From a virus, in IMG/VR virus record IMGVR_UViG_3300021139_000002, positions 32,001 through 96,000 of that record: a DNA stretch of 64,000 nt. One strand, 5' to 3'. Position numbers and translations under genes: made by a program. Positions 8,431 through 55,353 of this stretch are shown in pieces. Every line of letters begins with the position of its first letter. Position 1 is the first letter of the stretch. The notes under the pieces are model-generated. The model was given only the letters and a program-made list of their open reading frames with translations, had not been told where the DNA came from and ran no database searches.

Positions 8431-8447
8431 ACTAAAGGAAAAACAAA

Positions 8448-8642
8448 ATGAGTGCAATTTCAAACAAACTAGTTAAAGCAAATGAGAGCTTTACCATCAA
8501 CCGTTATGACAACGGCTTTATGATTGAAGTAGGCGGGCGTGACGACAATGACGATTGGAAAAGCGCCAAAGTTATTGTCGGATCAGAAGACGAACTAATC
8601 GACGCTATTAAAGAAGCGTTGGCATTACCTTTAGCAGAGTAA
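8448..8642 (+). CDS. Hypothetical protein
   Basis: 64 aa ORF with SD AAGGA. Confidence 0.65.
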   Translation: MSAISNKLVKANESFTINRYDNGFMIEVGGRDDNDDWKSAKVIVGSEDELIDAIKEALALPLAE

Positions 8643-8851
8643 TGTCTGATCTCATTTATCTCGTCTTAGGTTTTATATTTGGCGTTATCTTTATGCTTAA
8701 TAATAAAGAATATCGTCAAATGAAAACCTACGAACAATTAGATGAAGAAATGCGTAAAGAATTAGATACAAATAAGAACCTTGTTAAAAGTCTTAAAGAC
8801 GACTTGCATTGGGCAAAACAAAAAATCCAACACCTTAAGGAGAAACAATAA
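8642..8851 (+). CDS. Small membrane-anchored coiled-coil protein
   Basis: N-terminal transmembrane segment followed by a heptad-rich tail. Confidence 0.6.
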   Translation: MSDLIYLVLGFIFGVIFMLNNKEYRQMKTYEQLDEEMRKELDTNKNLVKSLKDDLHWAKQKIQHLKEKQ

Positions 8852-31800: not shown

Positions 31801-34800
31801 TAGCTATTTCTTGGTATGAACCGTCAGCTTTTTCATATAAACGACAAATTCCGTAGTATAAAGAATTATAATTAACAGGATCGCCTACGACCAATACATT
31901 ATCGCCTTTTCTCTTGCTGATTGCATATCCAAGTTGTTCGTGTGAAGATAATGACAATGTAGGAGTTGTATTATAATTATTAATTTTTTCGTATACCTCC
32001 CAGTTAGTTGTGTCAGAACCATCTATCCAAAATTTTGTTCCGTTTGAAAATCTAAACAGCACATTATCGGCAGGCAAATTATCAAAACTAGTTTTTCTTA
32101 CACTTTCAAAAACATAAAGCTGTCCCGGAGTAGGTAATGGTGCATCAGTAATGCTTGCTAATGTACTTGGTACCGTAAATTGTCTTGCATTATCAACGCT
32201 GGTTATTCTGTATATTCCGTCGACCTGTGAGTTAAATTGATTGATACCAACTAATTGTCCAACAGATAGTCCGTGAGGGTATTGTGTTGTAAATGTTATA
32301 CTGCTCACTGGAGCACTTACATAGACACCAACTACGCCCACTGGGTAGTATGTATAACGGTATACATCCCAATCACCGTCTTGTTTGAATCCTAACCAAA
32401 TAGTATCACCGTCTTTTAACTGACTGCTATTTGCAATATCTAGTAAACTATTTTCGTTATAAGCAGTTGCAGTAACATCGCTTAAACGTACATAGCCTGA
32501 ATGTTGTAACAATAATGAATCAATGCTAGATGTTGTTGCAAATGTTGCTAACGGATCGTAATTGTTAGGTGTTATAGTAAGATCACTAGGCAACACATAA
32601 TGAATTAAATCATTTGCATGAGCAGTAGGCAGCTCAGATACAAAGTTAATGATTTGGGGATTTTCTAAGAATGTTCCTTCAATTAATGGTGTTTCTAATT
32701 CTTGATAAGTTGGATAAGATCCGAACTCACCAACTCTAAATGCCCATTCTTCTGTATAACTTATGTCGCCCTTTAATGACTGAATGCTAGACTTTGAAAG
32801 TCTGTTAATAGCATTTTGCGTTCCCTTTTCTCTAATGAATCCTTGATAGAATTTATATTGTGCAACAGGGTCAGTAAAAATATTGTTTAGATAAGGGCGA
32901 GGAGTATAACCTGTCAAATGCTGTGCCATTTTTTGCTGACCGGCATCAAAGTTATCAGTATCGAGACTATAGAAATCTTCAAATTGTCCAATCTTATAAT
33001 CAAAGTTTGGAAGTAGACCAGCTACAGGTTTTTCGTTTAAAATATCCCATTTTGTAAAATCAAAAGCAGAAGCACGTTCTACATTTTGATTTGCAGAATA
33101 ATAGTTACCATTGAATCGAACAGCAGTACCGACATAATATGCGGTATTAGGAGTCCAGTCAAATACTTCGCCAGTGTCATAAACAAATCCAGGACTTGCA
33201 AAATCACCAGCCCAGTTGGCTGTTCTAAAACCAGATAATTTTACTCGACGTTGACGACTTCCTGTTTCAGGATTAAAAATGACATCATTAAAGATTGTGT
33301 AATTATTAAAAACAATAACGTGTTCTTTTTGTACTAGGTTTAGTCTTACAAAATATACCCCGTCGGTATTAGGATTTGTAGCAACCGTACAGATACCGTC
33401 AGTTCTAGAAATGTTTAAATCAGACTGAGGGTACGCAGTTGCATCAGCTCTTAAAACGCTGTATTCATAAAATCTATCAAATAGATTATCAACTACTGCA
33501 TTAGTTCCTTTGTACTTTAATGTATTTGCAAAAGGGCTTAATGTTAAGACGCTGCCGGTTGCCCATGCTTGGGTAGACCAGAATAAAAATTCACTGGCGG
33601 TTAAATTCCAATCTAGTGTTGTTCCTAAATCAGCATTGTATTCGTCAAATATAAAACCTTGGCTCTCTAACCAACGTCCGTAACCTATAATCAAATCATA
33701 CACATCTTGTAAATTAGTGTATGTTGTTCCGTATAGAACTTTTGTTACAGATGTGTCAAATGCTGCCGCTGCCTGAACGGTTGCGCCGCCTGTTGTAGGT
33801 AATCTAGGTACAGACTGGAAGTAAGAACTTTCAAATGTAGAACCAGAATTATGAGATACTAAAACTTTGTAAAATTTACTACCATACTGGACATATTGTC
33901 CTTTTTGGTAGAAATGTCCAGTTGCTGCCGCTGATGCAGTAACCGTATCACTGATGCTTAGACCTGATGTCGCTGGTGTTCCGCTCGGTGTCCATACTAC
34001 ATATTTTTCAGATACGCCACCTACGGTAATCGAAGGTGTGCCTAAATTTCTTAAAGGTTTGAATACATTAAAGTAAGCATCTTGCTTATCATAGCCTCTT
34101 ACAGAATAGCCGTTGTTTAATTTCTGAACAATTAAACCAGATGCCGCAATAGATAATATAGGATTGCTTGTATTAAATTTTAATGTATAATCTTGTAAAG
34201 GTAGAATAGCACCGGGTGCATTTGATGTAGGATCATATGCATCAATTACAATTTGTAAAGTACTCTTATCAGCAAAGCCATTTAATTTATAAAATAAGTT
34301 ATAGTTTGCATAACTCAAATCTTGTCTTAATTGACTGATGTAATCTTTGTCTCTTGCTTGTCCTATTTCAGAAACAAATACACTATATCCGCTAGTTAGT
34401 GTTTGATTTTCTCCGTGGATAGGTAAGTTACTTAATTTAAAAAACGAATCGTCTGTGGTAGAAATCCATTGCCCTGAAAGATTCTTAATAACTCTGCTAA
34501 CGTCGTAAAGTTTAGATGCGTAGGTAGCAGGCTTTGTTAATGCCAATAGTCGTTGAATTGCAAATGGGTAGTAACTACTTCTGTACCAAGCAGTCTCTGC
34601 TGGGCCAAGGTCTCCCACTTCCCAAGATTGACGTTTAGTTTCTTCAGTAATGTTAGTAACAAATTCTGTAGGATTTCTTAAACTACCTTCTGCATCAACA
34701 GGAATTATATTAGACAATCCCGGACGAGCATATAGTGAATTAACAACTCCGTTGATACTACCTGCTTCTAAATCTGTCCACAATGCTGTATTGGCGTTTG

Positions 34801-37645: not shown

Positions 37646-37652
37646 ATTTCTC

Positions 37653-40600
37653 TTATCCAGCAATTAAGGTTGTATTCAATTGTGCGGCTGTGATAGCATC
37701 GATTACTGCAATATCTGATGCTCGGGCACCGCTTATAAAAATTTCATTACTTTGACATGTAACTTCGTATAAACTACCAAAGTTATTAACAACAGGAACA
37801 ATGACAAAGTTTGTAATATCAGGAGTTAACAAATTCATGATATAAGTCGACAACTCACTAAAGTGGAAACTTTGTCCAAAATCCCAGTTTTCTAATGCAA
37901 AGAAATTATTAATACCTTCTAGTATTTTAGAAATAATCTCGTTGTCACTGATTGTACTAGAAGAACTCTTAACCGCTTTAAACTTAGCCTGTAAGTTAAT
38001 ATCGGCGGAGGTTCCAAATAATACCTTATATGTAACTGGTTGATATATTATTTCATCACTAATTGATTTAATAGGATCAAGTATATTTGCATAGTTATTA
38101 TCAAGACTTTGACTAGATGGTGGTAGTGGTTTGCTACCCGATCCTGTTAGTAACCAATTTCTAAAACTTGTATCGTAATCACTAGTAAGCATATAGACAT
38201 CTATTAAATTACTCTTGCTAGGATCAATTCTGTATTCTTCTCCACTATTATGTTGGTAGTGAAAACTTAAATCAGCACGACCGGGGTATGCTACATAGTT
38301 ACTGGCCAAGACAAATTCATTAAAAGAATCTACCGTCTTAACGGTATTTGTATCAACAAAATAGTAAAGGTATTCAGTATCTAATATGTTACTATAATGT
38401 CCTCTTGCCGCATTCTCGGATGAAAAAACAACATATTGATCAGTACTAACTGGAGTTAAACTCATGCCATCAGTTGTAAACTCAAACACCGCATAACCGT
38501 CCGACGTTCCAAGGTCATTAGAACTTCCTACAATATTTGCAAAGATATCAGGGTCTACTAATTGTCCTACGGTGCCGCTATCTTGATGGTTATAAAAACT
38601 TACTTCGACTCTAGATGGATCAACATATCCGTCTACTTCTATAATAGGTCCATTAATTTGCCAAACATAATCAGAACCTAAAGATTCGTTAGTTCCAGTT
38701 TTTGTATTAATAGACAACACCGTAATTTTATCTTTAACTACAGAATTATTGGTATAGTCAAAATTAACATCATTAGGATCGCTGTAGAAACCTGTTTGAT
38801 TTACACTTTGGAAAATAAAAGATGTTGTTCTATATCTAACTTTATATTCAGCTCCAGTCCATGTAAATGCAACCATCCAACTTGAATCTTTGTTTGCGTT
38901 GGTAACATCTCCTTGATATTCAAAACTAAAATCATTTACTAGATCTAAGTTTGTATCTTCAATAATCATCCAAGATCTTAAAGAAGAATCAAATCGTAAA
39001 CCAAAATTTCTTTGTGTTAGGCATAGGTTAACTAGATCATTTTCAAAGGTATATGACAAAGTGTTAACAAACGCAGGAACAATTTCAACAGGAATAGATC
39101 CTTGGCCAGGTCGACTTCCTAGAATAATAGGGCCGGTGCCATCGGATAAATTTCCTTGTCCAACATTTGAACCATCCCCTATTACTTGTAATACCGTAGC
39201 CCAAATATAATCAACGGTCTTGTTTGTTTGTTGAGGAACAATTTTTCCGTTTGGTAAGAAATATTGCTGTGCTCCAGACGATGTCTTAGGAGGAACAAAT
39301 TTTATAATAGCACCAGCAGTGATATATTGTAGTACAGAACTCGTATACGTACCTACACTTTGTGGAACATTAACATTTAATCTTCTATTTTTAGAATAGA
39401 AAAATCCTCGACCTTGACCAGTTACTACATTTGACGAATTCCACTCATATGTAGGATCAATTAAATCAGAATTTAATGTGATCGATGCCATTCCTCTATA
39501 ATGATCTAAGTAAAAATTTAAGAAGTAGTTAGAATCAATTATAGGTTCCAATTGTTGTTTAACAACAGAAAAAATATCATTCCTAGAAGAGTATGTAAAT
39601 GTAAAATTCTTTTCTGTATTATCTTTATAAACAATACCGTCTATTCCAAATATATTTGTAGAACTATATTTTCCGCTCACATCACTTAATTCGAAATACT
39701 TGCTTACACCGCTAGATTCTCTGTTAACACTTTTTACTTTTAAGATATTACTGGTCAACGTCAACGGTGCAATATTATAATCCTCTCCTGTTACCATACG
39801 ATTCTGTGTATAATATGTTTGAGGAGCGTTCTTCTGTATGCTGGCATTTGTTTCCGGACCAGAACTATTAGAAATTGTATATTGTAAAGAGAATGTCACG
39901 GTCAACACATGATTTTGACCGCTCTTATTAGCATACGGAATACTAACAACAATCCCTGACATTTGGTCAGGCTTGATAGAATATGTCATTCCATTACTTT
40001 GACGATAAAATAATTGAAAATTACCTTTAGGTAAATTTCCAAAAGTACCGTCTGCAAAAGTTAAATCAATCTGATCGTTATCTCGACTGGTTACGCTATA
40101 AAGATTTCTAATTGTTTGATTTAAACTATTATAGATAACATTGTTGCCTACAAGCGCAGGAACTTTAGTCCAAGGTGCAGATGGGTAAGATCCGCTAGGA
40201 TCTAACTGCCATAACCATACATCAGTATCATTAATGTTGTTGATATTGATACCAATAATCTCGTTAGGTACAGGATTACTAATATTAAAACTAGTAACAC
40301 CTATGCTACCCTGTTTGAATAAGGCAAAAAATCCTGTGTTAGCACTTCCTGAACCCTGATTATCATTTTGAAATATGACTGAGAATTGTTCAGCTGGTTT
40401 TGGTGCTGTCTCATAAACATAGGGTTGGCCGCTAAACGTAGCAGGCACAATTTCAAAATTCATAGGAGTACCGTTGATGTTTTTTAAAAAACTAAAAACA
40501 GGTACATCTTGGTTTGTTGTGTTTAATTGGTATTGTTCTGTTAGTATGCCGTTTAATGTATTACGATCATTTGGTTTACCAAAAATTGTTACGCTCGGCA

Positions 40601-41090
40601 TAGCAGAATTAAAAATGTTTGTAAATTGCTCGTACCAATTAGAATTAGATGGATCGTTCCACGCGATTGTTGTATTGGCTAAATTAACACCTGTACTATC
40701 AGTAACGCTGTCTGTTGTACTGACCGCTGTTACTTTTAACAGACCGTTAGCTGTACGGTTTCTTTTAGGAACATAGCTGATTAATTGTGCTAAACGTAAA
40801 ATGCTATCACGACGCTGTGCTGTTTCTAAAAAGTTTTCACGAGCATTTAAATCAATACGGAAGGATAAGTTCTGTCCTAGGTAAGCAATGACATCAACTA
40901 ATGCAACAAATTCACTACTATCAATATAATCGTTGAAATCTTCAGGATAATTTTCTTGAAGATAGCCAATTAAAATGCGACGAATTGTTTCAAAGTCATA
41001 GCTCTGAAAGTCTGCATTTTTAAAAGATTGGTATATCTTTGTCCAATCTTCTGTTACCAGTAATTTTTTATTTGTTGATGGGATAGTCAT
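37653..41090 (-). CDS. Baseplate wedge protein, T4 gp6-like
   Basis: DFETIR..L, ENFLETAQRRDSILRLAQLISYVP, FADGTFG and QNRMVTGEDY. Confidence 0.85.
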   Translation of the reverse strand: MTIPSTNKKLLVTEDWTKIYQSFKNADFQSYDFETIRRILIGYLQENYPEDFNDYIDSSEFVALVDVIAYLGQNLSFRIDLNARENFLETAQRRDSILRLAQLISYVPKRNRTANGLLKVTAVSTTDSVTDSTGVNLANTTIAWNDPSNSNWYEQFTNIFNSAMPSVTIFGKPNDRNTLNGILTEQYQLNTTNQDVPVFSFLKNINGTPMNFEIVPATFSGQPYVYETAPKPAEQFSVIFQNDNQGSGSANTGFFALFKQGSIGVTSFNISNPVPNEIIGININNINDTDVWLWQLDPSGSYPSAPWTKVPALVGNNVIYNSLNQTIRNLYSVTSRDNDQIDLTFADGTFGNLPKGNFQLFYRQSNGMTYSIKPDQMSGIVVSIPYANKSGQNHVLTVTFSLQYTISNSSGPETNASIQKNAPQTYYTQNRMVTGEDYNIAPLTLTSNILKVKSVNRESSGVSKYFELSDVSGKYSSTNIFGIDGIVYKDNTEKNFTFTYSSRNDIFSVVKQQLEPIIDSNYFLNFYLDHYRGMASITLNSDLIDPTYEWNSSNVVTGQGRGFFYSKNRRLNVNVPQSVGTYTSSVLQYITAGAIIKFVPPKTSSGAQQYFLPNGKIVPQQTNKTVDYIWATVLQVIGDGSNVGQGNLSDGTGPIILGSRPGQGSIPVEIVPAFVNTLSYTFENDLVNLCLTQRNFGLRFDSSLRSWMIIEDTNLDLVNDFSFEYQGDVTNANKDSSWMVAFTWTGAEYKVRYRTTSFIFQSVNQTGFYSDPNDVNFDYTNNSVVKDKITVLSINTKTGTNESLGSDYVWQINGPIIEVDGYVDPSRVEVSFYNHQDSGTVGQLVDPDIFANIVGSSNDLGTSDGYAVFEFTTDGMSLTPVSTDQYVVFSSENAARGHYSNILDTEYLYYFVDTNTVKTVDSFNEFVLASNYVAYPGRADLSFHYQHNSGEEYRIDPSKSNLIDVYMLTSDYDTSFRNWLLTGSGSKPLPPSSQSLDNNYANILDPIKSISDEIIYQPVTYKVLFGTSADINLQAKFKAVKSSSSTISDNEIISKILEGINNFFALENWDFGQSFHFSELSTYIMNLLTPDITNFVIVPVVNNFGSLYEVTCQSNEIFISGARASDIAVIDAITAAQLNTTLIAG

Positions 41091-41134
41091 AATATTGTTC
41101 TACACCGTATTTATTTTATCTATAAACCACATAC

Positions 41135-41572
41135 TTAATGTGAGAGTAATCCGATTTCCTGATCAAAAGTTAATTTTAAATTAGTCGATTGATCAGTGCC
41201 TTTTAGTTTAAGAGTAGCTTCAACTATAAAACCTGTAGGATATTCTGTGACATTTATTCTAGTCGGTGTTACCCTTGGATCACTATTACAAATACCTGTT
41301 ATATCTTTATTCAGTGCTTCTCTAACATCAGGAGTCATTGGCTCCATTAATAGATCCCATACAATACTTCCAAACTGAGGATTCATCACTCGCTCACCTT
41401 TGCGAGTATTGAATTGGTTGATGATATCTTGCTTGATTAAATCTAAATCAAATAATTTTGCCGTAGGATTTAAAGGGTCAACGCTACTATAACCTTTATA
41501 AAATTGAGTTGTTTTTAAAGGTTGTTCTAGTACTGCATTGGCTGTGGTAATTTCTATTGACTTGTATGGCAT
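41135..41572 (-). CDS. Baseplate wedge protein, gp25-like
   Basis: TRKGERVMNPQFGS and DPRV. Confidence 0.9.
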   Translation of the reverse strand: MPYKSIEITTANAVLEQPLKTTQFYKGYSSVDPLNPTAKLFDLDLIKQDIINQFNTRKGERVMNPQFGSIVWDLLMEPMTPDVREALNKDITGICNSDPRVTPTRINVTEYPTGFIVEATLKLKGTDQSTNLKLTFDQEIGLLSH

Positions 41573-41579
41573 AGTGTAT

Positions 41580-43895
41580 TTATTGTCCGGACTTAACTGG
41601 GTTTCCTTGACTATCAGTTAGGATGGTTCCTCCGCCAGTGGTAACGTTTGTTGAGGAATTAGCCGAGATTGTACTCTTTAATTGTCCTAAGAAACATTCG
41701 TAATATCCCTTTTTCTTAGCATAGATATCAGGTGTACATAATCCTACCGCTTTGTACGCGGCTTCAAAATATGCAGGACTATTTTGATCAACTTTACATC
41801 TATCTTTCAAATACCAAACACTAACTTCTGCTGCCACTGCTGGGTCATTTAATAATTTTGGATTGTTTACAAGGTCGTATCCTGAAAGGTTTCCGTACTT
41901 GGTATAGTTTGCTCTACCAGTTAATTGAATATACCCTCTACCAATAAATGCCGCGCCGTCTCCAGGTTGAGTATTTCCTAATCCTCTACCTTTAGAAGTG
42001 TTGTAGCCATACAAGAATTCAGGAAGACTATTGTTAGGATTACCGGCATATTGCTGAGCCAGTGCTTGGTCGCCTTTGAATACACTTGGAAATACTTGTA
42101 ATAGTCTAGCGGCAGAATAATTAAATCCTTCCTCAACGGTTTTCCATCCGCTCTCTCCGCCCGCAATTCCTAACAATGCGGCTTGAGCATAAGGACTTGT
42201 AAATCCTAATTTTGCACACGCAGTTTTAATAGCTGCTTGTCCAGCTTTGCCAGCAGGTGCATTAATTTCAGCCGCCCTCTTAGGATCGCAAGTTCCGGGA
42301 ACAATGTCTGGTTGGTTGGCAGGATCTTGGACTCCTGAGTTAGGGTTAATCTCAGCGCCGGCGGCTGCTCTTGCAGAGCCCGGGCCAGTACTCAAAGTAG
42401 CGTCTGTTGCTTGTGAACTAAATTTTGATGGATTAACGTTCTCGTGCTGAGGCCAAGGTTCATGTGTTGGCACACGTTGCATAATTGAGGTAATTGTTCC
42501 TGTGTTATAAAACTTATCAGGACCCCAACCGTAATTTACATCTCTGTTAGGCAAGCTATGAATATCTAATAGTGGAGGTGCTTCTGCACTTTCTGGAGAA
42601 GTAGGCGCACTAGCCGGAGGACCGTTAAAGTGAACTTGAGCTCCTACCATTACAATATTGCCGTTGGCATCAACACTAAACACTCCGCCAGATCCTACCA
42701 TAACACTTTCGCCACCAATAAGGTTCATGCCATTTGAGGCAGCGGCCATGATATCTTTTCCAACATTTAAATGGAAGTCACTTAGTACGGTCATCTTTGC
42801 AACATCACCGATTGCTAAATCGTAATTACTTTTAACAGATATCTTACTATAATCGTCGATAGCAAGGTAATGATATCCGCCAATATTTGTTTCCATATTT
42901 TTAACTGATCTCATATGGATATCTCGACCTGCTTCAATATTAACATCTCGACCTGCTCGGAAGTTAAAATCTTGTTCAGTGTGTATACTCACGCTGTCAG
43001 CCGCATACATATCAATTTTACCATTACTGGTTAGTTCAATCCATGCAGACCCTTTGCTATTGCCGATATAAATTAAATCTTGGCTATTGTGCAACAATAT
43101 TTGATGACCGGTTCTTGTTCTTATTCTAACAAGTTCGTTCTGTCCGTTGATGTCCCCGTCGTCCATGACAAACGTACTGCCACCTAATCTACTAACAGGT
43201 GCAATACGTTTGCTTTCATAACCTATTTGTGCAGTTTTTCCGCCAGGGCTTGTATCTAATGGGCCTGGAGTACTAATACCAAACACACCGCTTGGAACTT
43301 CTCGTCTGGCGCTACTTGATGTAACACCTCTAGTAGTATCTAACAACAATCCTTGTTGTACTAATCTATCTGCAAAGGGATGTACTGGTTTTTTTATTAC
43401 GTTCGGATCTGGCACATCGTTTGTTTGTGTGCTTTTTAAAAATTCTGCAACAGGTAGATATGTTGTACCATATCTTTGTATCTGTTCAGGAGTCATTGAT
43501 GTTTGTTGACTGGCAGCAATCCCGGGTATCATGTGATTCTGAAACTGATCAGGAACACACCCCATCCAGTAACCTTGGTTAGGATCTCCATCAATAAAAA
43601 TAACCAGCACAACGGTTCCAATATCAGGAGGAACCATCCACATACCGTATGACTTTTGTACGTCATTAAAGTTACTGCTATTATTACCTTCGTATCTAAT
43701 AGATGTAACTCCGTAGAAAGGACTTAGATAACGAACAATATACGTGTCTGTTTGATAGTCAATAGAGTTTTGTAGTGTTTTTATTAAAGACACTTCTAAA
43801 CTTCCCATATATGTAGGATCAAGGTTATTGGTTATCTCAGCTAGGAACGGACCTGCTGAGGGTAACTTGCCTCTCGCTCTTTTCTCAACTGCCAT
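41580..43895 (-). CDS. Baseplate hub/spike (gp5/VgrG-like) with GH19-type lysozyme domain
   Basis: OB-fold PPDIGTVVLVIF, RTRTGHQ beta-helix repeats, and C-terminal FIGRGYIQLTGRANY. Confidence 0.85.
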   Translation of the reverse strand: MAVEKRARGKLPSAGPFLAEITNNLDPTYMGSLEVSLIKTLQNSIDYQTDTYIVRYLSPFYGVTSIRYEGNNSSNFNDVQKSYGMWMVPPDIGTVVLVIFIDGDPNQGYWMGCVPDQFQNHMIPGIAASQQTSMTPEQIQRYGTTYLPVAEFLKSTQTNDVPDPNVIKKPVHPFADRLVQQGLLLDTTRGVTSSSARREVPSGVFGISTPGPLDTSPGGKTAQIGYESKRIAPVSRLGGSTFVMDDGDINGQNELVRIRTRTGHQILLHNSQDLIYIGNSKGSAWIELTSNGKIDMYAADSVSIHTEQDFNFRAGRDVNIEAGRDIHMRSVKNMETNIGGYHYLAIDDYSKISVKSNYDLAIGDVAKMTVLSDFHLNVGKDIMAAASNGMNLIGGESVMVGSGGVFSVDANGNIVMVGAQVHFNGPPASAPTSPESAEAPPLLDIHSLPNRDVNYGWGPDKFYNTGTITSIMQRVPTHEPWPQHENVNPSKFSSQATDATLSTGPGSARAAAGAEINPNSGVQDPANQPDIVPGTCDPKRAAEINAPAGKAGQAAIKTACAKLGFTSPYAQAALLGIAGGESGWKTVEEGFNYSAARLLQVFPSVFKGDQALAQQYAGNPNNSLPEFLYGYNTSKGRGLGNTQPGDGAAFIGRGYIQLTGRANYTKYGNLSGYDLVNNPKLLNDPAVAAEVSVWYLKDRCKVDQNSPAYFEAAYKAVGLCTPDIYAKKKGYYECFLGQLKSTISANSSTNVTTGGGTILTDSQGNPVKSGQ

Positions 43896-43900
43896 TTATA

Positions 43901-46900
43901 TTACCTTATCATTATTTTATCTAAAGGACTTGTTCCTGCAGATTTACTACCAAATTTGTTAACTACAGAACTGCCCAAGTCTCCCACAATATTAACTGGG
44001 CCTAATTGGTTTCTAACTCCTATGAAGTTTCCTTCTAAAGATCCCGGTATTCCTGTTGGACCCATTAACGAATTTCTTTCTGCATATAATTTAGCACCAA
44101 GTACTAAAGCATCTGTACTATTGTTAATGCCTAATTTGCTTAGGTAATTGTTAAGAACAGACGGAGAGTTTGAAGCCGCAGTTTGTGCAGAGTCAGTGGG
44201 CAATTGATCTTGAGAAACATCTCGAACATTATTTGCTCCATAGGTCCTAGCCAGTGCTTGCAATCCTCCACGTGCTGTTAGTTGATTTAAGAAAGATTGA
44301 TCCGGCGCAGGGTTAGGAGCAGTATTGTACGGTGTTGTAGGTGGCAAATTAGCAATCCCATTAGCGCCCAATCCGTTTAAGTTTATACCCTGAGCAGATG
44401 CAATACCAAGATCAGTATTTTCTGGAGTACTACTTACTATGTTTTCTAGTTGTCCAACAACTTTACTTTGTAGGTTAGGACTTAGACCAGATAACTGACT
44501 TTGATTAACACCAAATAAAGATGCTATTGCTAGAGGATCTGCTTTGTTTCCTTGTAAAGCAGATTGTATATTAGTGCCTGCGTTGTTTATTAAACTTGCA
44601 CCACTATCAGGCATATTCGATACTGCGGATAGCGCATTTGTATTAAGTCCTGTGGCAATACCTGTTGTAGGTATCGCTGACGGCGGTGTTGCTAATTGTT
44701 GAGATCTAATACCGTATGCCGTTGTAGAATCTGTATTATTTTGTACAAGTTGTAGAACTGCTCCAACACCTATGCCGGATCCTACAGCAGTGGCTTGATT
44801 AATTTTTCTACCTTGTTCACCTAAGAACTGATTTAACAATTGAGCAGCAGGTCCTTTGACACCAAAACTATTTGCTAGTTGCATACCCATTGCTTGTACA
44901 TATCCGCCAGGACTATATACTCGTTGTTGTAGACCAACTGCGGCTTTGCTAGGTAGTGGCATTCCAAATGCAGGTTGGTATTGCCCGCCTGGTATAGAAC
45001 CACCAAATACTTGAGTAGACAATCTGGTCATACCTGCTAAATTAGAAGTTGCACCGCTGACATTAACTACTCCAACGGTTCCGCCTAAGCCTCCTGTCGC
45101 ATTTGTAAAATTACTCAATTGTCCAGGAAGTCCGGGACTAGGTAGTCCTCGATCAAGTTGTGACCATAAGTTTAATTCATCTGGTCGTTGTCCCGGAGCT
45201 TCATCAACTGCTGGTGTTTGGTCAGCGGTAACTGCATCAGATCTATTAGGAGTTAGTCGTGTATGTTTAGAAGGATCAGTTGGTGCAAATTGACCTTCGT
45301 TACTAGGAACTTTTTTAGCAGGTAGCTGTCCAGGTTGTCTTATCACTTCTAACGATTGTTTAAACACACCGTCTTTAATTTTACTATTACATTTTGTAAC
45401 TCTGTAAACACCACTAAATGGAACTAACTCTGCATCAAATTGCATTGCACCAGTTGGTCCTATATCTACTGGATTTAAAAAATTCAAAGTTACTAAGACC
45501 TCGCCATAGGTATGCGCTGCCTCCCCGTTTTCTAATTGTCTAGGAGTATTAGAAGTTGGTTTTATATTTTGATTACCAATGCCTCCGGTACATAGATAAA
45601 ACGGATCTCCTAGAATTTCTAATTCTCCCTGAATTAAGTTAGCCTTGCTATCTGTAATTGCATTATGCATGGCTTTGGCCATCGCATAGTAAGGATCTCG
45701 TTGTGTTTGGCCCCCGTTATCTTTTTGCTGGTCAGTTAATTCTGCCGTAGACATCGTAGGTGCAGTAGGTAACCCGCTTTTATTATAAAGGTCAAGAGAG
45801 GCAGCAGCCTTTTTTCCTGAGTCAGTAAGCGGAGTTACGTTGCCCAAATCAACCTTGTTTGATTTAGCACCTGCTTCTCTTGCTGGAGCACTATTAATAG
45901 CACTACCTAATACTTTAGGAATTGCTTCAAAATATAATAAATCAAATTTTAACTTAAAATTAAGAATATCTATATTTTGTCCAGAATAGATGTAATTGTA
46001 TTCACGAAGACTCATCTTGACTAAGGCGGTAGAATCAACTACTTGTTTTCCATAGTTAGGAATTCGTGTATATAAAATTTTATAAGGTGTGATTACATAG
46101 GTATAAGTTTGATATGGTTTATTCTTGTCAGGATCGATTGCATCTTGATTTTCGACTTCTACCTTAATTAAAAAATAATCAACTAATCCATCTTTAACAA
46201 CAGACTTCCATTCTGATTGAGAACTTAATTTTCTAAGTATTTCTCGAACATAATGACTATCTCTAATAATTGCTGTTATACATTCGTTTATGCTTTTACC
46301 TTCAGGAAATTGAACTACAGGATTACTAGGAGATATTTTATAAAACTCAGGATTCTTAGCGTTCTGTTCAGGAGTCGGCTTAGTTTGATCAGTTGGCTGG
46401 TTTGCTGTAGGTTTAGTATTAGTACCAGCGTCAGGAAATTTATATAAAGTATTGTCTTTTAATATTTCAGTAACTTTACTTTTAGAAATATCATTTCCAC
46501 CATCAACCCAGCCTTTAGCATCATCCCAAGAAGGAAATTTAATTTTGTAAATATCATATCCCTTGCCTGCACCTGCGTTCTTTGCTTCTTCTTGAACTTG
46601 TTTATTAACACCATCAATTAGGTTAGATAAGATTCCTTCAACGGTATTGCCGTTGATACTGATAGGTCTTTTAATTTCGCTAGGATTTCCTAATATACGT
46701 TCAGTATTAGGAACTGCTTTGACAGAATATTTTGTTCCTTTTTCGTCAACATTGATATCCATTTCTGTTATGGTTATTGTAAAATATCTTGTTGATTGGT
46801 CTACGGTTGAAGGTTCTGGTAAATCTGCATCATCAGTATACCCTTTAAATTCTATTCGAAGAACAAGAGTTGCACCAGAATAACTAGGATATCCGGCAGC

Positions 46901-49659: not shown

Positions 49660-50673
49660 ATGAGCCTATTTAAAAAGGTAGCATGTTTTACAGACATACA
49701 TTTTGGACTCAAATCTAACTCAGCAACACACTTAAAAGATTGCGAGGAATTTGTAGATTGGTTTATTGAAACTGCAAAGAAAGAAGGTTGCGAAACTGCA
49801 ATCTTCTTAGGAGACTGGAGTCACAATCGTAATAGTTTAAATCTGTTTACATTAGACTCTAGCCTACGTTGTTTGGAAAAACTAGGCGCAGCATTTGAAC
49901 AATTTTTCTGGTTCCCAGGAAATCACGACTTGTTCTACAAAGACAAGCGTGATATTCATAGCTCTGCATTTGGAAGACATATTCCAGGAGTCACCGTGGT
50001 CGAAGAAGTAACTACCATAGGTGATGTGACCTTAGTACCGTGGTTGGTAGGTGACGAATGGAAAAATATTAGCAAAGTAAAGAGCAAATACATGTTCGGA
50101 CACTTTGAATTGCCCTTGTTCTACATGAACGCAATGGTACAGATGCCCGATCACGGTGAATTGCAGGCCAATCACTTTGTACATCAAGACTATGTGTTCA
50201 GCGGACACTTCCATAAACGTCAAAGTCGTGATAAGATTCATTATATAGGTAATGCATTTCCGCATAACTTTGCGGATACATGGGATGATGCTCGCGGCAT
50301 GATGGTCATGGATTGGGGCGGCACACCAAAATACATTGACTGGGAAAATTGCCCTAAGTATAGAGTAATTAAATTATCAGAGCTTATTGATAAAAAAGAT
50401 GCAATTATGAAAAGTAAGATGCATATCAAAGTTAATCTAGATATCGATATTAGTTTTGAAGAAGCAAACTTTATCAAAGAAACGTTTGTTGCAGATTATG
50501 ACATACGAGAAATTAGTCTAATTCAAGATAAGACTAATCTTGATGGAACTATCGACGACAACCCAGATGCTAAATTCGAATCTGTTGATCAAATTGTCAC
50601 TGAGCAATTAGTCAATATCGAATCTAAAGAATTTGAAAAAACAACTCTTCTAGAAATTTATAATAATCTATAA
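49660..50673 (+). CDS. Recombination nuclease subunit (gp47/Mre11/SbcD)
   Basis: DIHFG, GD, GNHD and GHFH metallophosphoesterase motifs. Confidence 0.92.
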   Translation: MSLFKKVACFTDIHFGLKSNSATHLKDCEEFVDWFIETAKKEGCETAIFLGDWSHNRNSLNLFTLDSSLRCLEKLGAAFEQFFWFPGNHDLFYKDKRDIHSSAFGRHIPGVTVVEEVTTIGDVTLVPWLVGDEWKNISKVKSKYMFGHFELPLFYMNAMVQMPDHGELQANHFVHQDYVFSGHFHKRQSRDKIHYIGNAFPHNFADTWDDARGMMVMDWGGTPKYIDWENCPKYRVIKLSELIDKKDAIMKSKMHIKVNLDIDISFEEANFIKETFVADYDIREISLIQDKTNLDGTIDDNPDAKFESVDQIVTEQLVNIESKEFEKTTLLEIYNNL

Positions 50674-52451
50674 TGTTTCAACTTAAAAATTTAACCGTTA
50701 AAAACTTCATGAGCGTTGGTGCTCAGACCCAGGCTGTTGACTTTGACAAAGAACATCTCACGTTGGTACTAGGTTCTAACTTAGATTTAGGTGGCGATGA
50801 TACAGGTTCACGTAACGGTACTGGCAAAACTACAATGATCAACGCATTGAGTTATGCTTTGTACGGGCAAGCCCTTACTAACATTAAAAAAGAAAACTTA
50901 ATCAATAAGATTAACGGTAAAGCTATGTTAGTTACCGTAGAGTTTGAAAAGGGCGGAAACAAATATCGCATCGAACGCGGACGAAAACCCAACGTACTTA
51001 AATTGTTTGTCAACGATAATCAATTAAAGACTGAAGAAAAAGAAGACGAGAGTCAAGGTGACAGCCGAGAAACTCAAAAGGCTATTGAGGAAATGCTTGA
51101 AATGAGTCATACCATGTTCAAGCACCTTGTTGCATTGAATACGTATACTGAGCCATTCCTAAGTATGCGAGCAGCTGACCAACGTGAAGTTATTGAACAA
51201 CTACTTGGCATTACTCTGTTGAGTACAAAGGCAGAAGCACTTAAAGTTCAAGTCAAAGAAACCAAGGATGCTATTACCGCAGAAGAATTTAAAATTGCAG
51301 GTATTAAAACTGCAAACGAAAATGTACAAAAAAGCATTGATAGTTTGCACTTAAAAAGCAATGCTTGGGAAAACAAACAACAACAAGAGTTAGAAAACTT
51401 AGGTCGTGCTATTGTAAACTTAGAATCAGTTGATATCGAAGCAGAACTCAAAGCGCACTCTGCTCTGAAGTGGTGGGATGAAGAAAATACACGCATTAGA
51501 AATTTGAATAAACAGAAGTCTACACTAGAAACAGCAGTTATTCAAGCAGAAAAAACTCTAAACAAGTACAAACGAGAGTTAGAAAGTCTAGCAAATAAAA
51601 CTTGTCACGCCTGTGAACAACAACTTCATGATCACAAACATGAAGAAATGACTGCTACCGCTACACAGCATCTAAAAGAAGCAGAAGATTACTTTCAAAA
51701 AGTAAGCACTCAGCTTACCCAAATTATATATGATGTAGGTGACGGTACATTGCCAGACAAGCCTACTACCTTTTATGATACAGAAGCAGAAGCTCTTGGA
51801 CATAAAAACAATTTAGCCGGATTAGAGAAATCGTTAATTTCAAAAGCAGAAGAAAAAAATCCGTATGCTGAACAAATTGAAGAATTAAAGAAAACTGCTA
51901 TCCAAGAAATCAATTGGGAAGGTATCAACACGTTAACAAAGTACAAAGACCATCAGGAGTTTTTGCATAAACTATTAACCAATAAAGATAGTTTCATTCG
52001 TAAAAAGATTATTGATCAAAATTTAGCATACTTAAACAAGCGTCTAACTTATTACATTGACAAATTAGGACTTCCTCATCAAGTTGTATTCCAGAACGAC
52101 TTAACCGTTATGATTACACAACTAGGACAGGATCTAGATTTTGATAACTTATCACGTGGTGAGCGCAACCGTTTAATTCTTTCTATGAGTTTTGCATTCC
52201 GCGATGTATGGGAAGGCCTGTATCAAAGTATTAATTTGTTGTTTATTGATGAACTTGTAGATGCAGGCATGGATAGTGCAGGTGTTGAAAGTGCATTAGG
52301 TGTATTGAAGAAAATGGCTCGTGAAAGAAACAAGAACATTTATCTTATTTCACACAAAGATGAATTAGTAGGCCGTGTTAATAATGTATTAAGAGTTGTT
52401 AAAGAAAACGGTTTTACCAGTTATAGCAACGATATAGAGTATGTTAGTTAA
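50673..52451 (+). CDS. Recombination ATPase subunit (gp46/Rad50/SbcC)
   Basis: NGTGKT Walker A, CHAC zinc hook, LSRGE signature, FIDE and ISH. Confidence 0.93.
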   Translation: MFQLKNLTVKNFMSVGAQTQAVDFDKEHLTLVLGSNLDLGGDDTGSRNGTGKTTMINALSYALYGQALTNIKKENLINKINGKAMLVTVEFEKGGNKYRIERGRKPNVLKLFVNDNQLKTEEKEDESQGDSRETQKAIEEMLEMSHTMFKHLVALNTYTEPFLSMRAADQREVIEQLLGITLLSTKAEALKVQVKETKDAITAEEFKIAGIKTANENVQKSIDSLHLKSNAWENKQQQELENLGRAIVNLESVDIEAELKAHSALKWWDEENTRIRNLNKQKSTLETAVIQAEKTLNKYKRELESLANKTCHACEQQLHDHKHEEMTATATQHLKEAEDYFQKVSTQLTQIIYDVGDGTLPDKPTTFYDTEAEALGHKNNLAGLEKSLISKAEEKNPYAEQIEELKKTAIQEINWEGINTLTKYKDHQEFLHKLLTNKDSFIRKKIIDQNLAYLNKRLTYYIDKLGLPHQVVFQNDLTVMITQLGQDLDFDNLSRGERNRLILSMSFAFRDVWEGLYQSINLLFIDELVDAGMDSAGVESALGVLKKMARERNKNIYLISHKDELVGRVNNVLRVVKENGFTSYSNDIEYVS

Positions 52452-52744: not shown

Positions 52745-53179
52745 ATGTCCTGGTTCTATGAAAATAAAGAAATAACAGCATTGCCTGAAGATTGTGTAGG
52801 ATTTGTATATCTTATAACAAACACAATTGATGGACGTATGTATATAGGCAAAAAATTAGCAAAATTTAGTAAAACGACCTACAAAACTATTAAGTTGAAG
52901 AACGGCAACAAAAAGAAAAAGAAAATTAGAACTAAGATTGACAGCGACTGGCAGGAATATTACGGGTCCAGCACTGAACTAACGGCGGATATCGCTAAAC
53001 TAGGCACACAAAATTTTAAAAGAGAAATACTTTATTATTGCAAATCTAAGGCAGAATGTAGTTACATTGAGGCAAGAGAACAATTTACCCGCAAAGTATT
53101 AGAATCAAACGAATATTATAACGGACAGATTTCTGTTCGTGTCCATGGCTCCCATATAAAAAACAAATTAAACGGTTAA
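52745..53179 (+). CDS. Small GIY-YIG nuclease
   Basis: GFVYLIT...MYIGKK, YYGSS, conserved Glu and YYN; Lys-rich insert. Confidence 0.8.
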   Translation: MSWFYENKEITALPEDCVGFVYLITNTIDGRMYIGKKLAKFSKTTYKTIKLKNGNKKKKKIRTKIDSDWQEYYGSSTELTADIAKLGTQNFKREILYYCKSKAECSYIEAREQFTRKVLESNEYYNGQISVRVHGSHIKNKLNG

Positions 53180-53184
53180 TAAGC

Positions 53185-53530
53185 AAGCACAAGCTAACAT
53201 CGTGTGCCCTAAACCTGGATCTCGGATCGCAGGGATGGAAACCTCTCGCCGTTAAGAGTACTCAATCACTACCCGAAAGGATGAAGATCGCTAATAAGAC
53301 CTGCGATTTGGTTGTTTGAAAATAGATAAATAGGCAAAATGAAGGGTTAGAGACGCCCTACGTTTGTATATATGTTAGCGTATGTATGCAAACCGCCGCT
53401 GGAATAAGACGCTGCTCGAGGTACAGGCCAACCGCCTCTGTAATGCAGTAACGCTAAGTGACATATGTTCGACTCGAATAATGTTTCTTTGCCCTTCCTG
53501 GGCAAAGTGTGACTGAACGATCTGAATAAT
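53185..53530 (+). ncRNA. Putative large structured non-coding RNA
   Basis: No ORF of 60 aa or more, raised GC, several helices with G-U pairs on the + strand, and GNRA loops. Confidence 0.5.
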
Positions 53531-53608
53531 ATTTAAACTACTTCGTAGTATCAGTATGAAATCAATTGCTTCGAGTGCGAGCGAAGAAGCAAACGAACGC
53601 AGTTCGTT

Positions 53609-53616
53609 TATAAATA
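53609..53616 (+). promoter_or_regulatory. T4-type late promoter TATAAATA
   Basis: Exact motif 30 nt upstream of 53646. Confidence 0.75.
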
Positions 53617-53645
53617 AACAATAATAAATTTAGGAATTTCCTGTT

Positions 53646-54278
53646 ATGCGTATCAATGAATTAATATTAGAACAACAACTTGATGAACTTAATCTTAAAG
53701 GGTTAGGAACAGGTTTAGGTAAGGCTGCTGGTGCAGTAGCCGGAGGTGTAGTTCAAGGTGCTAAAAATATGTGGGCTGGTGCAAAACAGGGATACGATGC
53801 AGCTCAACAAGCATTAAAACCAGATGGTACGCCAGCTACATCTGCTCCTACACAACAACCAAATACTTCTACTGCTCCTGCTAGCCCACAACAACCAGCT
53901 GGTGGAGAAGTTGCATCTAATAACTTACTTCAAAGAGCACAGCAAGGAACTACTCAAGATCTTAATGCACAGCCAGCTACTCAAGCACCTACAGCTGGTA
54001 CAACTCCTCAACAAGCAGCCGCACAGGATCAACAGGCAAAAATAGGAGTAGGACAGATCAATAAGATTATTCCTACTTTAAGAACACGTGATTTACAAAG
54101 TGTTAAGAAAAATGTTGATGCAACTATTGCTAAAAAGTCTAAACAACCAGCAGCTCCTGTTCAACCGCCAGCTCCGACACAAGCTGAATTAGATGCTGAC
54201 CATGCAAGAATGGCCAGCGGAACAAATGAAAGTAAAGTTATTCAATTCCGCAGTAAGTTTTTAGGGATAGATATTTAA
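53646..54278 (+). CDS. Gln/Ala/Pro-rich putative head-internal protein
   Basis: N-terminus MRINELILE, LDE/TNE motifs, and a late promoter. Confidence 0.6.
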   Translation: MRINELILEQQLDELNLKGLGTGLGKAAGAVAGGVVQGAKNMWAGAKQGYDAAQQALKPDGTPATSAPTQQPNTSTAPASPQQPAGGEVASNNLLQRAQQGTTQDLNAQPATQAPTAGTTPQQAAAQDQQAKIGVGQINKIIPTLRTRDLQSVKKNVDATIAKKSKQPAAPVQPPAPTQAELDADHARMASGTNESKVIQFRSKFLGIDI

Positions 54279-54508
54279 AAGAACGGCTGTCCAGTTTCTT
54301 TAGCAATTTCAAGATTCTTTTCAATAATCTTACCAATTACTTCTCTATCTTCAAATGATAACATGAATGCCTCCGATGGAGGCATTCCTCTCATGTACCA
54401 ACAGATTCTAAATACTTCGTCTTTTAAGGCTTTTGACTCTTGTTCATAATCCCTAACGAGCCTGTTGATGCCCTCAAGGTCAAGGGTTAAAAGCCTTAGA
54501 CGAAAAAA
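54275..54508 (-). CDS. -1 frameshift extension of the 54496-55353 gene (GT/gp51-like tail chaperone C-terminus)
   Basis: Slippery T TTT TTC just before the stop; the -1 frame is open for 77 codons, ending ...ICWYMRG...GQPFF. Confidence 0.7.
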   Translation of the reverse strand, partial: FFRLRLLTLDLEGINRLVRDYEQESKALKDEVFRICWYMRGMPPSEAFMLSFEDREVIGKIIEKNLEIAKETGQPFF

Positions 54509-55353
54509 GTTGAAGCATCGAACGTGATAGGAACTTGTACAACATCACCCGTTACTCCATTTTCTCTCATTTCATCGGTAACAGCTACAGACATTGGCTT
54601 GATTGTATTGTTATCCCTTAGTGCTTCTAAGTGAGTTTGAATTCTATTGAAGATTTCTTTGTCAATGTTCTCAACAAATTCTTTAATGTGATTGATATCG
54701 TTAGTGCTACCATTTATACTTTCGATTCTATCGATACTATCAGAGATAGTTCCTAATGTTGCACTACTTAACTTTTTGAAACTTTCCTGAAACAATTTGA
54801 TTTTCTTATCATCTTCAATTTTTTCATCATTGACTACCTGCATGATCTTTTGAGTTTCAAAAGATTGTAGCGCAGCCGCACTAATTTGTTTATAGTTTAG
54901 AGGTTTAACAAATACGGTTAGTTCATCACTGATAGATACAACAGGATTCCAACTGATTTGATTCATTAAATTATCCATTACTACTCGCAAGTCGACTTGA
55001 TAATCTAACTCTAAGGTATCACTGAATGTAATAGGAGTAGTCATCATTTCACCGTAAGTTGCTAAACGAATAGCAATTAAAATAATGTCAACATCAATTG
55101 ACGGAGCCAACCAAGCGTTTTTAATATTAGGAATACAATGTTGAATAACGTCTACTACAGCTTGTCCGTTCATTAGCGCATCGGGGACCTTGAGCATAAG
55201 TTCATCTTTGGCGGTCATAGAATATACAGGAAACTCCCCGTTCTCTGGAATTTCTATACTTCCCGTAGGCCAATATTCACCGCCGCTGGGCAACTTGATA
55301 TAAATCTTTGGTTGACGCATAAACATGGTTAGCGGATTGGTGGTAGAATTCAT
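54496..55353 (-). CDS. Baseplate hub/tail assembly chaperone, T4 gp26-like
   Basis: IKLPSGG.YW, MTAKDE...K, D.D.ILIAIR.ATYGE, ending ..FF. Confidence 0.75.
   Translation of the reverse strand: MNSTTNPLTMFMRQPKIYIKLPSGGEYWPTGSIEIPENGEFPVYSMTAKDELMLKVPDALMNGQAVVDVIQHCIPNIKNAWLAPSIDVDIILIAIRLATYGEMMTTPITFSDTLELDYQVDLRVVMDNLMNQISWNPVVSISDELTVFVKPLNYKQISAAALQSFETQKIMQVVNDEKIEDDKKIKLFQESFKKLSSATLGTISDSIDRIESINGSTNDINHIKEFVENIDKEIFNRIQTHLEALRDNNTIKPMSVAVTDEMRENGVTGDVVQVPITFDASTFFV

Follow-up and report, generated by a model that had tools for sequence, protein, structure and literature searches.

The DNA analysed here, referred to throughout as the window, is a stretch of 64,000 nt (positions 32,001-96,000) of IMGVR_UViG_3300021139_000002, a 106-kb IMG/VR virus record that carries T4-type genes; all coordinates below are window positions unless a locus or record is named. 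Downstream of gp47-like and gp46-like genes the window harbors a minimal GIY-YIG nuclease gene, whose stop codon (53177-79) is followed by 466 nt (53180-53645) that form the longest stretch of the window without open reading frames (ORFs) of at least 70 aa. The GC content of this gap, 0.44, exceeds that of the window (0.38) and that of the GIY-YIG gene (0.33), in agreement with an earlier note, made from the sequence alone, that had described it as GC-richer than its surroundings and as the longest non-coding stretch. The same note proposed a large structured non-coding RNA on the + strand, and this is what the gap contains: positions 53182-53611 correspond to the full-length form of the Polynucleobacter-1 RNA, an identity and fold that leave hardly any room for doubt (Table 1).

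Extent, family and fold of the RNA

In a cmscan search the first 136 nt of the element (53182-53317, + strand) matched Rfam family RF01718, Polynucleobacter-1, over the whole of its model (positions 1-141 of 141) with 114.6 bits and an E value of 3.9e-24, the curated gathering cut-off of this family being 37 bits. This was the sole match in the whole window at the Rfam curated thresholds, and the 3' two-thirds of the RNA (~290 nt) matched nothing in Rfam, even at E values up to 10. The novelty claimed in the earlier note is thus lost for the head of the RNA and retained for its uncatalogued 3' part. A pattern derived from the motif retrieved 118 viral loci, 88 of which match 53182-53317, and 82 of these 88 also match 53318-53645, contiguously. 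The conservation profile is unbroken up to 53611 and then collapses; the end proposed earlier, 53530, was about 80 nt short.

Counts concerning covariation, the twin boxes described below and the linkage seen from the RNA side were obtained on 101 distinct full-length homologues (alignment A1). Their common structure comprises 94 pairs, 20 helices and three pseudoknots, with 93.5% of the cells paired and 75 of the 94 pairs changing on both sides. The covariation score of 0.476 was reached by none of 500 shuffles (0.180 ± 0.004), and slid controls, in which the partners were moved by 1-3 columns, gave at most 0.10. All three pseudoknots were recovered independently by mutual information, and the helices of the RF01718 model are 91-100% paired, most of their pairs changing on both sides. 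Folding of the + strand gives a minimum free energy (MFE) z-score of -2.34, that of the - strand one of 0.03, and several G-U pairs are near-invariant in the family, which confirms the strand called earlier.

Six of the eight helices that had been read from the single sequence are supported by covariation, namely those with 5' strands at 53187-91, 53273-74 (the CC-GAAA-GG stem), 53344-46, 53362-74 (13 bp), 53411-15 and 53487-94 (partners in Table 1). The other two had to be abandoned: a long-range pairing of 53223-33 with 53300-10 is paired in 72% of the cases and TACAG/CTGTA in 77%, neither with compensating changes, and in place of the former the homologues support the local hairpins 53214-21/53225-33 and 53286-91/53303-08. 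Towards the 3' end, the linker at 53531-53567 is variable in length and sequence, poorly conserved and rich in gaps, and the terminal hairpin, seven of whose eight pairs covary, is likely the 3' end of the RNA. The T4-type late-promoter consensus TATAAATA is found in only 14 of the 101 homologues and is therefore not part of the RNA family.

Group I and group II introns, RNase P, tmRNA, tRNA, ROOL, GOLLD and HEARO were considered and rejected, given that none gave an Rfam match at E values up to 10 and that ARAGORN found no tRNA or tmRNA genes in the window or the 106-kb record; the earlier note had likewise been unable to match the RNA to tRNA, tmRNA, RNase P or an intron. A group I intron carrying the GIY-YIG gene can also be set aside, with no Intron_gpI match at E values up to 10 and flanking ORFs that vary between loci, the downstream one often on the opposite strand. 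A blastn search of the RNA against 50,697 phage records gave no match, and a pattern scan of bacterial genome contigs gave only chance matches among the matches listed. The phages that carry the RNA are uncultured and T4-like and probably live in fresh water. As to their bacterial hosts, leads come from the nearest cultured homologues of the nuclease, whose phages infect Betaproteobacteria (Methylophilales, Variovorax, Acidovorax), and from the Polynucleobacter record in Weinberg et al. (2010).

Polynucleobacter-1 was described by Weinberg et al. (2010, Genome Biol 11:R31, PMC2864571), who found the motif in no purified phage and whose supplement places it downstream of GOS11034 / PSSM2_218-like genes. 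Since the PSSM2_218 family is a GIY-YIG family (see below), the linkage between gene and RNA had already been seen in 2010, without the gene being recognised as a nuclease. A full-text literature search found no other paper that names Polynucleobacter-1. The catalogued motif and the present RNA share the same helices, the same position 3' of a PSSM2_218-like gene and a fresh water or estuary habitat. However, the motif as catalogued (141 positions) is the first third only. The present RNA extends ~290 nt beyond it, a part that is absent from Rfam and that contributes two further pseudoknots, the twin boxes and a pair of 3' hairpins. It also differs in lying in T4-like phage contigs, beside a gene recognised as a GIY-YIG nuclease, and in the modularity of its 5' domain, which phage loci swap and a bacterial chromosome keeps with a different continuation. 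The family itself is known; its full-length architecture, pseudoknots, twin boxes, phage home and the identity of its neighbour are not in the searchable literature.

The orphan motif of 2010 therefore forms the 5' part of a triply pseudoknotted RNA of ~430 nt, which joins the few large, ornate phage RNAs. It resembles ROOL, GOLLD, HEARO/omega RNA, OLE and raiA in its length of several hundred nt, its many helices and pseudoknots, its association with phages or mobile elements and the lack of an assigned function at discovery, but it matches none of them in Rfam at E values up to 10 and is shorter than GOLLD and ROOL.

Table 1. Features of the locus, in window positions; paired strands are separated by a slash and pseudoknot partners by x.
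Feature	Position	Strand	Basis or detail
gp47-like phosphoesterase and gp46-like SMC/AAA ATPase genes	49660-52451		
Minimal GIY-YIG nuclease gene, 144 aa, SegE-like, phrog_447	52745-53179	+	Pfam, PHROG, AF2, Foldseek
Full-length structured non-coding RNA, ~430 nt	53182-53611	+	Conservation profile, covariation, MFE z-scores
5' domain (RF01718)	53182-53317	+	cmscan, covarying helices
Small pseudoknot of 5' domain	53183 x 53194	+	Mutual information
Helices of 5' domain	53187-91/53203-07; 53214-21/53225-33; 53241-46/53254-59; 53263-68/53309-14	+	Covariation
Pairs enclosed by 53263-68/53309-14	53269/53283; 53273-74/53279-80; 53286-91/53303-08	+	Covariation
Middle domain, absent from Rfam	53333-53457	+	Mutual information, covariation
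Hairpins of middle domain	53344-46/53357-59; 53362-74/53381-93 (13 bp)	+	Covariation
6-bp pseudoknot with loop of 13-bp hairpin	53375-80 x 53452-57	+	6/6 pairs covary, 96% paired
3-bp pseudoknot	53400-02 x 53428-30	+	3/3 pairs covary, 98% paired
Helix around two inner helices	53411-15/53445-49; inner 53418-21/53435-38 and 53425-27/53432-34	+	Covariation
Unit 1	53458-53482	+	GUGAC 53458-62, spacer, A-CUC 53472-75, twin box 1 GAAUAAU 53476-82
Inter-unit hairpin, 8 bp	53487-53507 (53487-94/53500-07)	+	Covariation
Unit 2	53509-53530	+	GUGAC 53509-13, spacer, A-UCU 53520-23, twin box 2 GAAUAAU 53524-30
Small hairpin in linker	53537-53549	+	Alignment A1
Two 3' hairpins	53568-53609	+	53568-72/53586-90 (inner 53575-76/53581-82); terminal 53591-98/53602-09
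T4-type late-promoter consensus TATAAATA, ahead of gene 53646-54278	53609-53616	+	Read from sequence
T4 baseplate protein gene	54496-55353	-	

The GIY-YIG nuclease gene and its linkage to the RNA

The 144-aa protein encoded upstream of the RNA belongs to PF19835 (SegE_GIY-YIG; E 3e-33, 115.1 bits against a cut-off of 25, residues 3-129); its best PHROG is phrog_447 (E 1.4e-37), and homing-endonuclease PHROGs are among its matches. An AlphaFold2 (AF2) model, with a predicted local distance difference test (pLDDT) of 95.4, displays one domain and a long beta-hairpin, the latter formed by a Lys-rich insert (residues 40-66), and the top PDB match of the model in Foldseek is the catalytic domain of I-TevI (1ln0, probability 0.99, E 0.08). 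According to Pfam and the model, the nuclease is an I-TevI-like catalytic domain without a separate DNA-recognition domain; the lack of such a domain had been noted earlier from the translation. Among 80 homologues, down to 35% identity, residues G35, E109 and N126 never vary, and conservation reaches at least 90% at Y22, Y33 and R93; by I-TevI numbering these would be the catalytic residues of a GIY-YIG nuclease. An equivalence with T4 endonuclease II (DenA) was considered and rejected, since at E <0.1 no GIY-YIG protein of solved structure matched the sequence and the fold is nearest to I-TevI.

The nuclease gene found ahead of the RNA is abundant: a word-indexed protein search scored 8000 clusters, all with E ≤1e-5, and 2191 family representatives at 50% identity had E ≤0.001. 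With PSSM2_218 of P-SSM2 the nuclease shares 36% identity (E 3e-21), and both PSSM2_218 and phrog_447 are labelled "NAD synthetase". This label, borne by phrog_447, NC_006883 PSSM2_218, NC_041997, NC_028945 and others, is a widespread mis-annotation of a minimal GIY-YIG nuclease and is corrected here. No nuclease homologue above 60% identity was found among cultured phages (50,697 phage records). The homologues from Melnitz, ACP17, S-SRM01, P-HM2, phiN3 and P-SSM2 (36-49% identity) have the same architecture, including the Lys-rich hairpin, and are followed by neither the RNA nor a long gap.

The linkage to the GIY-YIG gene noted at this one locus holds in both directions. From the RNA side, the gene precedes 98 of the 101 distinct copies in the same orientation; for the other three, the contig ends 38-528 nt upstream of the RNA. 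From the protein side, 80 viral homologues, the closest ones at 71-92% identity, were considered: the RNA lies downstream in the viral contigs of 77, one (L324) clearly lacks it and two have less than 400 nt of contig after the gene. Empty sites, that is nuclease-less alleles, were not found among the RNA loci, every one of which has the gene when enough upstream sequence is available. At most loci 0-30 nt separate the nuclease stop codon from the RNA. Eight loci or more have one or two cargo genes, of unknown function apart from one B12-binding radical SAM enzyme, inserted between the two over up to 1.8 kb, order and orientation being kept. Gene and RNA are constant neighbours in one conserved block, preceded by gp46/gp47, after which radical SAM genes often come first, and followed by genes that vary in identity and strand. 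A scan between the nuclease stop codon and the RNA found no promoter-like or terminator-like site, in agreement with the earlier statement that no terminator separates them, which together with the closeness of the stop codon suggests that gene and RNA are co-transcribed.

Many related phages encode radical SAM enzymes, one or two per locus and some with a SPASM or B12-binding domain, between gp46 and the nuclease gene (radical SAM loci: L059:2327-3340, L060:2211-4423, L042:6959-7984, L039:2206-3303, L091:7431-9149 and L089:5112-6488); at L089 the radical SAM gene is located between the nuclease gene and the RNA. The next gene after the RNA (53646-54278) has no Pfam or PHROG match, and its versions in relatives encode ~170-650 aa; at other loci minus-strand genes take its place, one of them for a DUF6614 protein.

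Twin boxes that change in step

The strongest non-pairing mutual-information signals in the RNA connect column pairs that change same-with-same at an offset of 48 nt. They correspond to the word GAAUAAU, which occurs at 53476-82 and again at 53524-30, each copy (twin box) being preceded by an A and three pyrimidines (CUC and UCU, respectively) and, further 5', by GUGAC placed directly after a helix. Box 1 and box 2 are identical in 100 of the 101 distinct RNAs, whose boxes together comprise 11 words fitting NNAURAN. When the boxes are masked for tree building, the word proves to have changed at least 34 times; by position there are at least 41 changes (at least 20 at position 1, six at position 2, eight at position 5 and seven at position 7), all mirrored in both copies, and the closest pairs of RNAs with unlike words differ at one position per box. 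To our knowledge, no counterpart of such twin boxes changing in step has been described.

The flanks of the boxes are fixed yet unlike between the copies (CUC versus UCU on the 5' side, G versus A after the box), so that copying between the repeats would have to be limited to exactly 7 nt. The need for such confined copying makes selection for box identity a simpler reading than gene conversion. Two mini-ORFs ending in the boxes (GUG...NNA-URA, the last codon plus the stop) were considered and rejected: on the raw sequences the frame is not kept, the differences in GUGAC-to-box spacing are not multiples of three (the spacers of unit 1 measure 6-9 nt), and the apparent frame was an artefact of an alignment from which columns had been removed. 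Pairing of the two spacers with each other (S1 with S2) fits some clades (GUUC/GAAC) and is not general.

The boxes are kept in RNAs whose 5' domain has been swapped for an unrelated sequence absent from Rfam, which indicates that the twin-box part is the more constant one and that the catalogued head is exchangeable. At least two types of quite different 5' domains, none in Rfam, were observed with the twin-box 3' part behind the same nuclease gene (L254:3427-3850, L277:3427-3764, L316, L318, L284, L315, L274:1441-1921 and L247), and ACAUGAA is an additional word found in one clade of these loci. A sample of 151 genomes from a single bacterial family yielded a copy with the full RF01718 5' domain (96 bits) in a single-contig bacterial genome of 1.95 Mb (G099:C1:1722811-1722944, L373; L375:8811-8944). 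This copy has neither a GIY-YIG gene nor twin boxes and continues differently, but a GAGCG...AGCGA hairpin and the terminal hairpin recur in it. It is placed in a gap of ~980 nt between a DUF6641 gene and the gene of a 198-aa tyrosine integrase; nearby genes encode a C5 DNA methylase, an AAA ATPase and a further integrase-like protein, so that the surroundings look like an integrated element.

No column of the RNA tracks the boxes except the other box, and complementary 5- to 7-mers (Watson-Crick or with G-U) are not above control in the RNA or the nuclease gene. Searches for a partner of the boxes as guides were extended to ±3 kb of 67 loci and to six phage records, namely the 106-kb record itself and five long related ones (105.8-322.5 kb, one of them complete at 322.5 kb with terminal repeats). 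Around the 67 loci, compared with swapped-word controls, only the boxes themselves were recovered, and a single clade-specific complement match at about +600 came from near-identical loci. Within the six records, complements of the boxes occur at chance level, at non-homologous places inside ORFs. Three seemingly syntenic complements at about -18 to -19 kb proved to be three unlike Leu-Asp-Asn/Asp sites in one giant opposite-strand ORF and were discarded. Giant frames, ~3,900-5,100 codons long and with a conserved PTPTKLGLYP...VIQGHDGS region, are present in the related records ~13-30 kb ahead of the RNA and antisense to it (with the RNA on +: G003 28666-43995, G001 82096-95910, G005 30975-44735 and G004 103321-115125). 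The nuclease was also rejected as the reader of the variable box positions, given that five independent switches at position 1 share no common nuclease substitution.

The variable part of the box amounts to four free positions in 7 nt, present twice, which is too little sequence to single out a target. The earlier note had raised the possibility of a ribonucleoprotein in which the RNA supplies specificity to the nuclease. Judged from sequence comparisons, such a guide role appears unsupported, because no complements were found, no nuclease residue tracks the words and RNA-less homologues are common in cultured phages.

Possible roles of the RNA

The reading that we favour, with a probability of about one half, is that of a stable scaffold RNA that acts in trans and displays the same word twice to a single partner. 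The RNA would be transcribed as the tail of an early or middle gp47-gp46-GIY-YIG transcript, with its own 3' hairpin as the end point. A compact scaffold would be formed by the knotted 5' and middle domains, and the 3' domain would present two single-stranded copies of NNAURAN, each after GUGAC...A-YYY, to a single partner, either to two molecules of it or to two sites on it. That the words stay identical through dozens of changes implies that something reads both, and as no complement is encoded in the phage, the partner could be a protein or else a nucleic acid of the host. Transcription, stability, action in trans and the nature of the reader are thus inferred, and the RNA would act as a bivalent binding platform or decoy, and not as a guide for the neighbouring nuclease. 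The mode of action, scaffold plus bivalent presentation, is put forward tentatively, as a plausible and somewhat doubtful part of the proposal.

The bivalent platform is a deduction from the in-step evolution of the boxes, and some observations weigh against the proposal. The terminator scan did not call the 3' hairpin a canonical intrinsic terminator, and its tail is not U-rich. Moreover, a nuclease that is well conserved and apparently active is linked to the RNA almost without exception in both directions, which hints at a functional connection that the proposal does not account for.

The adjacency itself would have another cause if the nuclease were a selfish neighbour, that is, a free-standing Seg-type homing endonuclease established beside a stable-RNA gene and cutting nuclease-less or variant alleles in co-infecting phages. 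The function of the RNA would then be unrelated to the nuclease, so that this explanation is compatible with a trans-acting scaffold and competes only over the reason for the adjacency. Homing-type cutting of this sort is performed by SegB in the tRNA gene cluster of T4. The nuclease shares PF19835 (SegE) and the I-TevI-like catalytic fold with the T4 Seg-type endonucleases, has matches to homing-endonuclease PHROGs and, like segB, adjoins a stable-RNA gene, and the flanks of the gene-RNA pair differ between loci, with cargo genes inserted beside it. However, at 144 aa it lacks a DNA-binding or DNA-recognition domain, its partner is one large RNA instead of tRNAs, and its occurrence appears to be nearly fixed and not sporadic, as seen from both sides of the linkage. 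The protein is, in addition, 71-92% identical across loci with invariant catalytic positions. On balance we consider a selfish neighbour unlikely.

The position of the RNA on the same strand, immediately 3' of the gene, with no terminator between them and a very tight linkage, would also be expected of a 3' untranslated region of the nuclease mRNA that stabilises or gates this mRNA, or of an RNA that inhibits the nuclease in the style of a type III toxin-antitoxin system. The two boxes would then be two docking or processing sites, and two repeated units ~48-57 nt apart do resemble processed repeat RNAs. Nevertheless, 430 nt with three pseudoknots go far beyond the needs of known cis elements, genes spanning up to 1.8 kb can intervene, RNA-less homologues are common, and at least 34 box changes took place without a matching change in the nuclease. 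In type III systems, moreover, the toxin gene comes after the RNA and the repeats resemble one another from end to end, which differs from the order and the repeats observed here. A role in cis or as an antidote is thus clearly unlikely.

We rate as decidedly unlikely, and mention for its consequences, the idea that the twin boxes are a programmable address in a particle formed with the GIY-YIG nuclease or with some other factor of phage or host, selecting a duplicated or dimeric target or marking "self"; if true, this would be a new kind of RNA-specified phage system. Just as speculative is its structural variant, in which the boxes pair like-with-like in a parallel stretch and which, if true, would be an RNA motif not yet seen in nature.

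A more specific form of programming, in which the RNA and the domain-less GIY-YIG protein form a ribonucleoprotein whose variable boxes choose the nucleic-acid target, draws on the missing recognition domain, the tight linkage and the conservation of a scaffold that, like those of guide RNAs, contains a short segment evolving quickly while the protein stays unchanged. The omega RNAs of IscB/TnpB and the bridge RNAs of IS110 likewise combine a structured RNA beside a small nuclease gene with a short, freely varying segment. The present system differs from them in its GIY-YIG class, in having no guide of 14-20 nt, in the absence of a match to element ends or flanks, and in an RNA that is dispensable for most of the nuclease family. 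The paucity of free positions, the failure to find a complementary or identical site locally or above chance in the six phage records, and the same protein architecture, hairpin included, in cultured phages without the RNA make this form very unlikely.

Contacts of the boxes with each other, within or between RNAs, as parallel like-with-like pairs would turn the RNA into a self-contained fold, a ribozyme or an assembly. The covariation is indeed strictly same-with-same in the same 5'-3' order, the linker of ~41-50 nt with its hairpin is long enough for a parallel arrangement, and an outside partner was not found in the RNA, within ±3 kb or in the six phage records. However, the C-with-C pairs of the word GCAUAAU would need protonation, and we know of no natural RNA with so long a parallel homo-paired stretch, so that such contacts are very doubtful indeed. 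An element acting in DNA (iterons, a replication origin or a protein-binding site), with the RNA fold as secondary, is highly improbable: the direct repeats are about five helical turns apart and stable small hairpins (53537-53609) abut the late promoter, but G-U pairs and fold energy work on the + strand only, the 3' hairpins covary like RNA helices, and no DNA-binding protein gene tracks the boxes.

For the favoured reading, a trans-acting scaffold that displays two identical words, the twin boxes are the unusual signal to follow, and identifying their reader would probably reveal the function of the RNA, whose size and rigidity also make it a good target for cryo-electron microscopy.

Two further observations concern the wider sequences. 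The second-longest ORF-free stretch of the window (8431-8850, 420 nt) has no Rfam match at gathering thresholds. The related record G001 (L326-L342; 322,512 bp) is complete according to its terminal repeats and CheckV (100%) and carries one copy of the RNA together with 11 tRNA genes; in this record ARAGORN also calls a permuted tmRNA with the tag AANDDAYLMAA.

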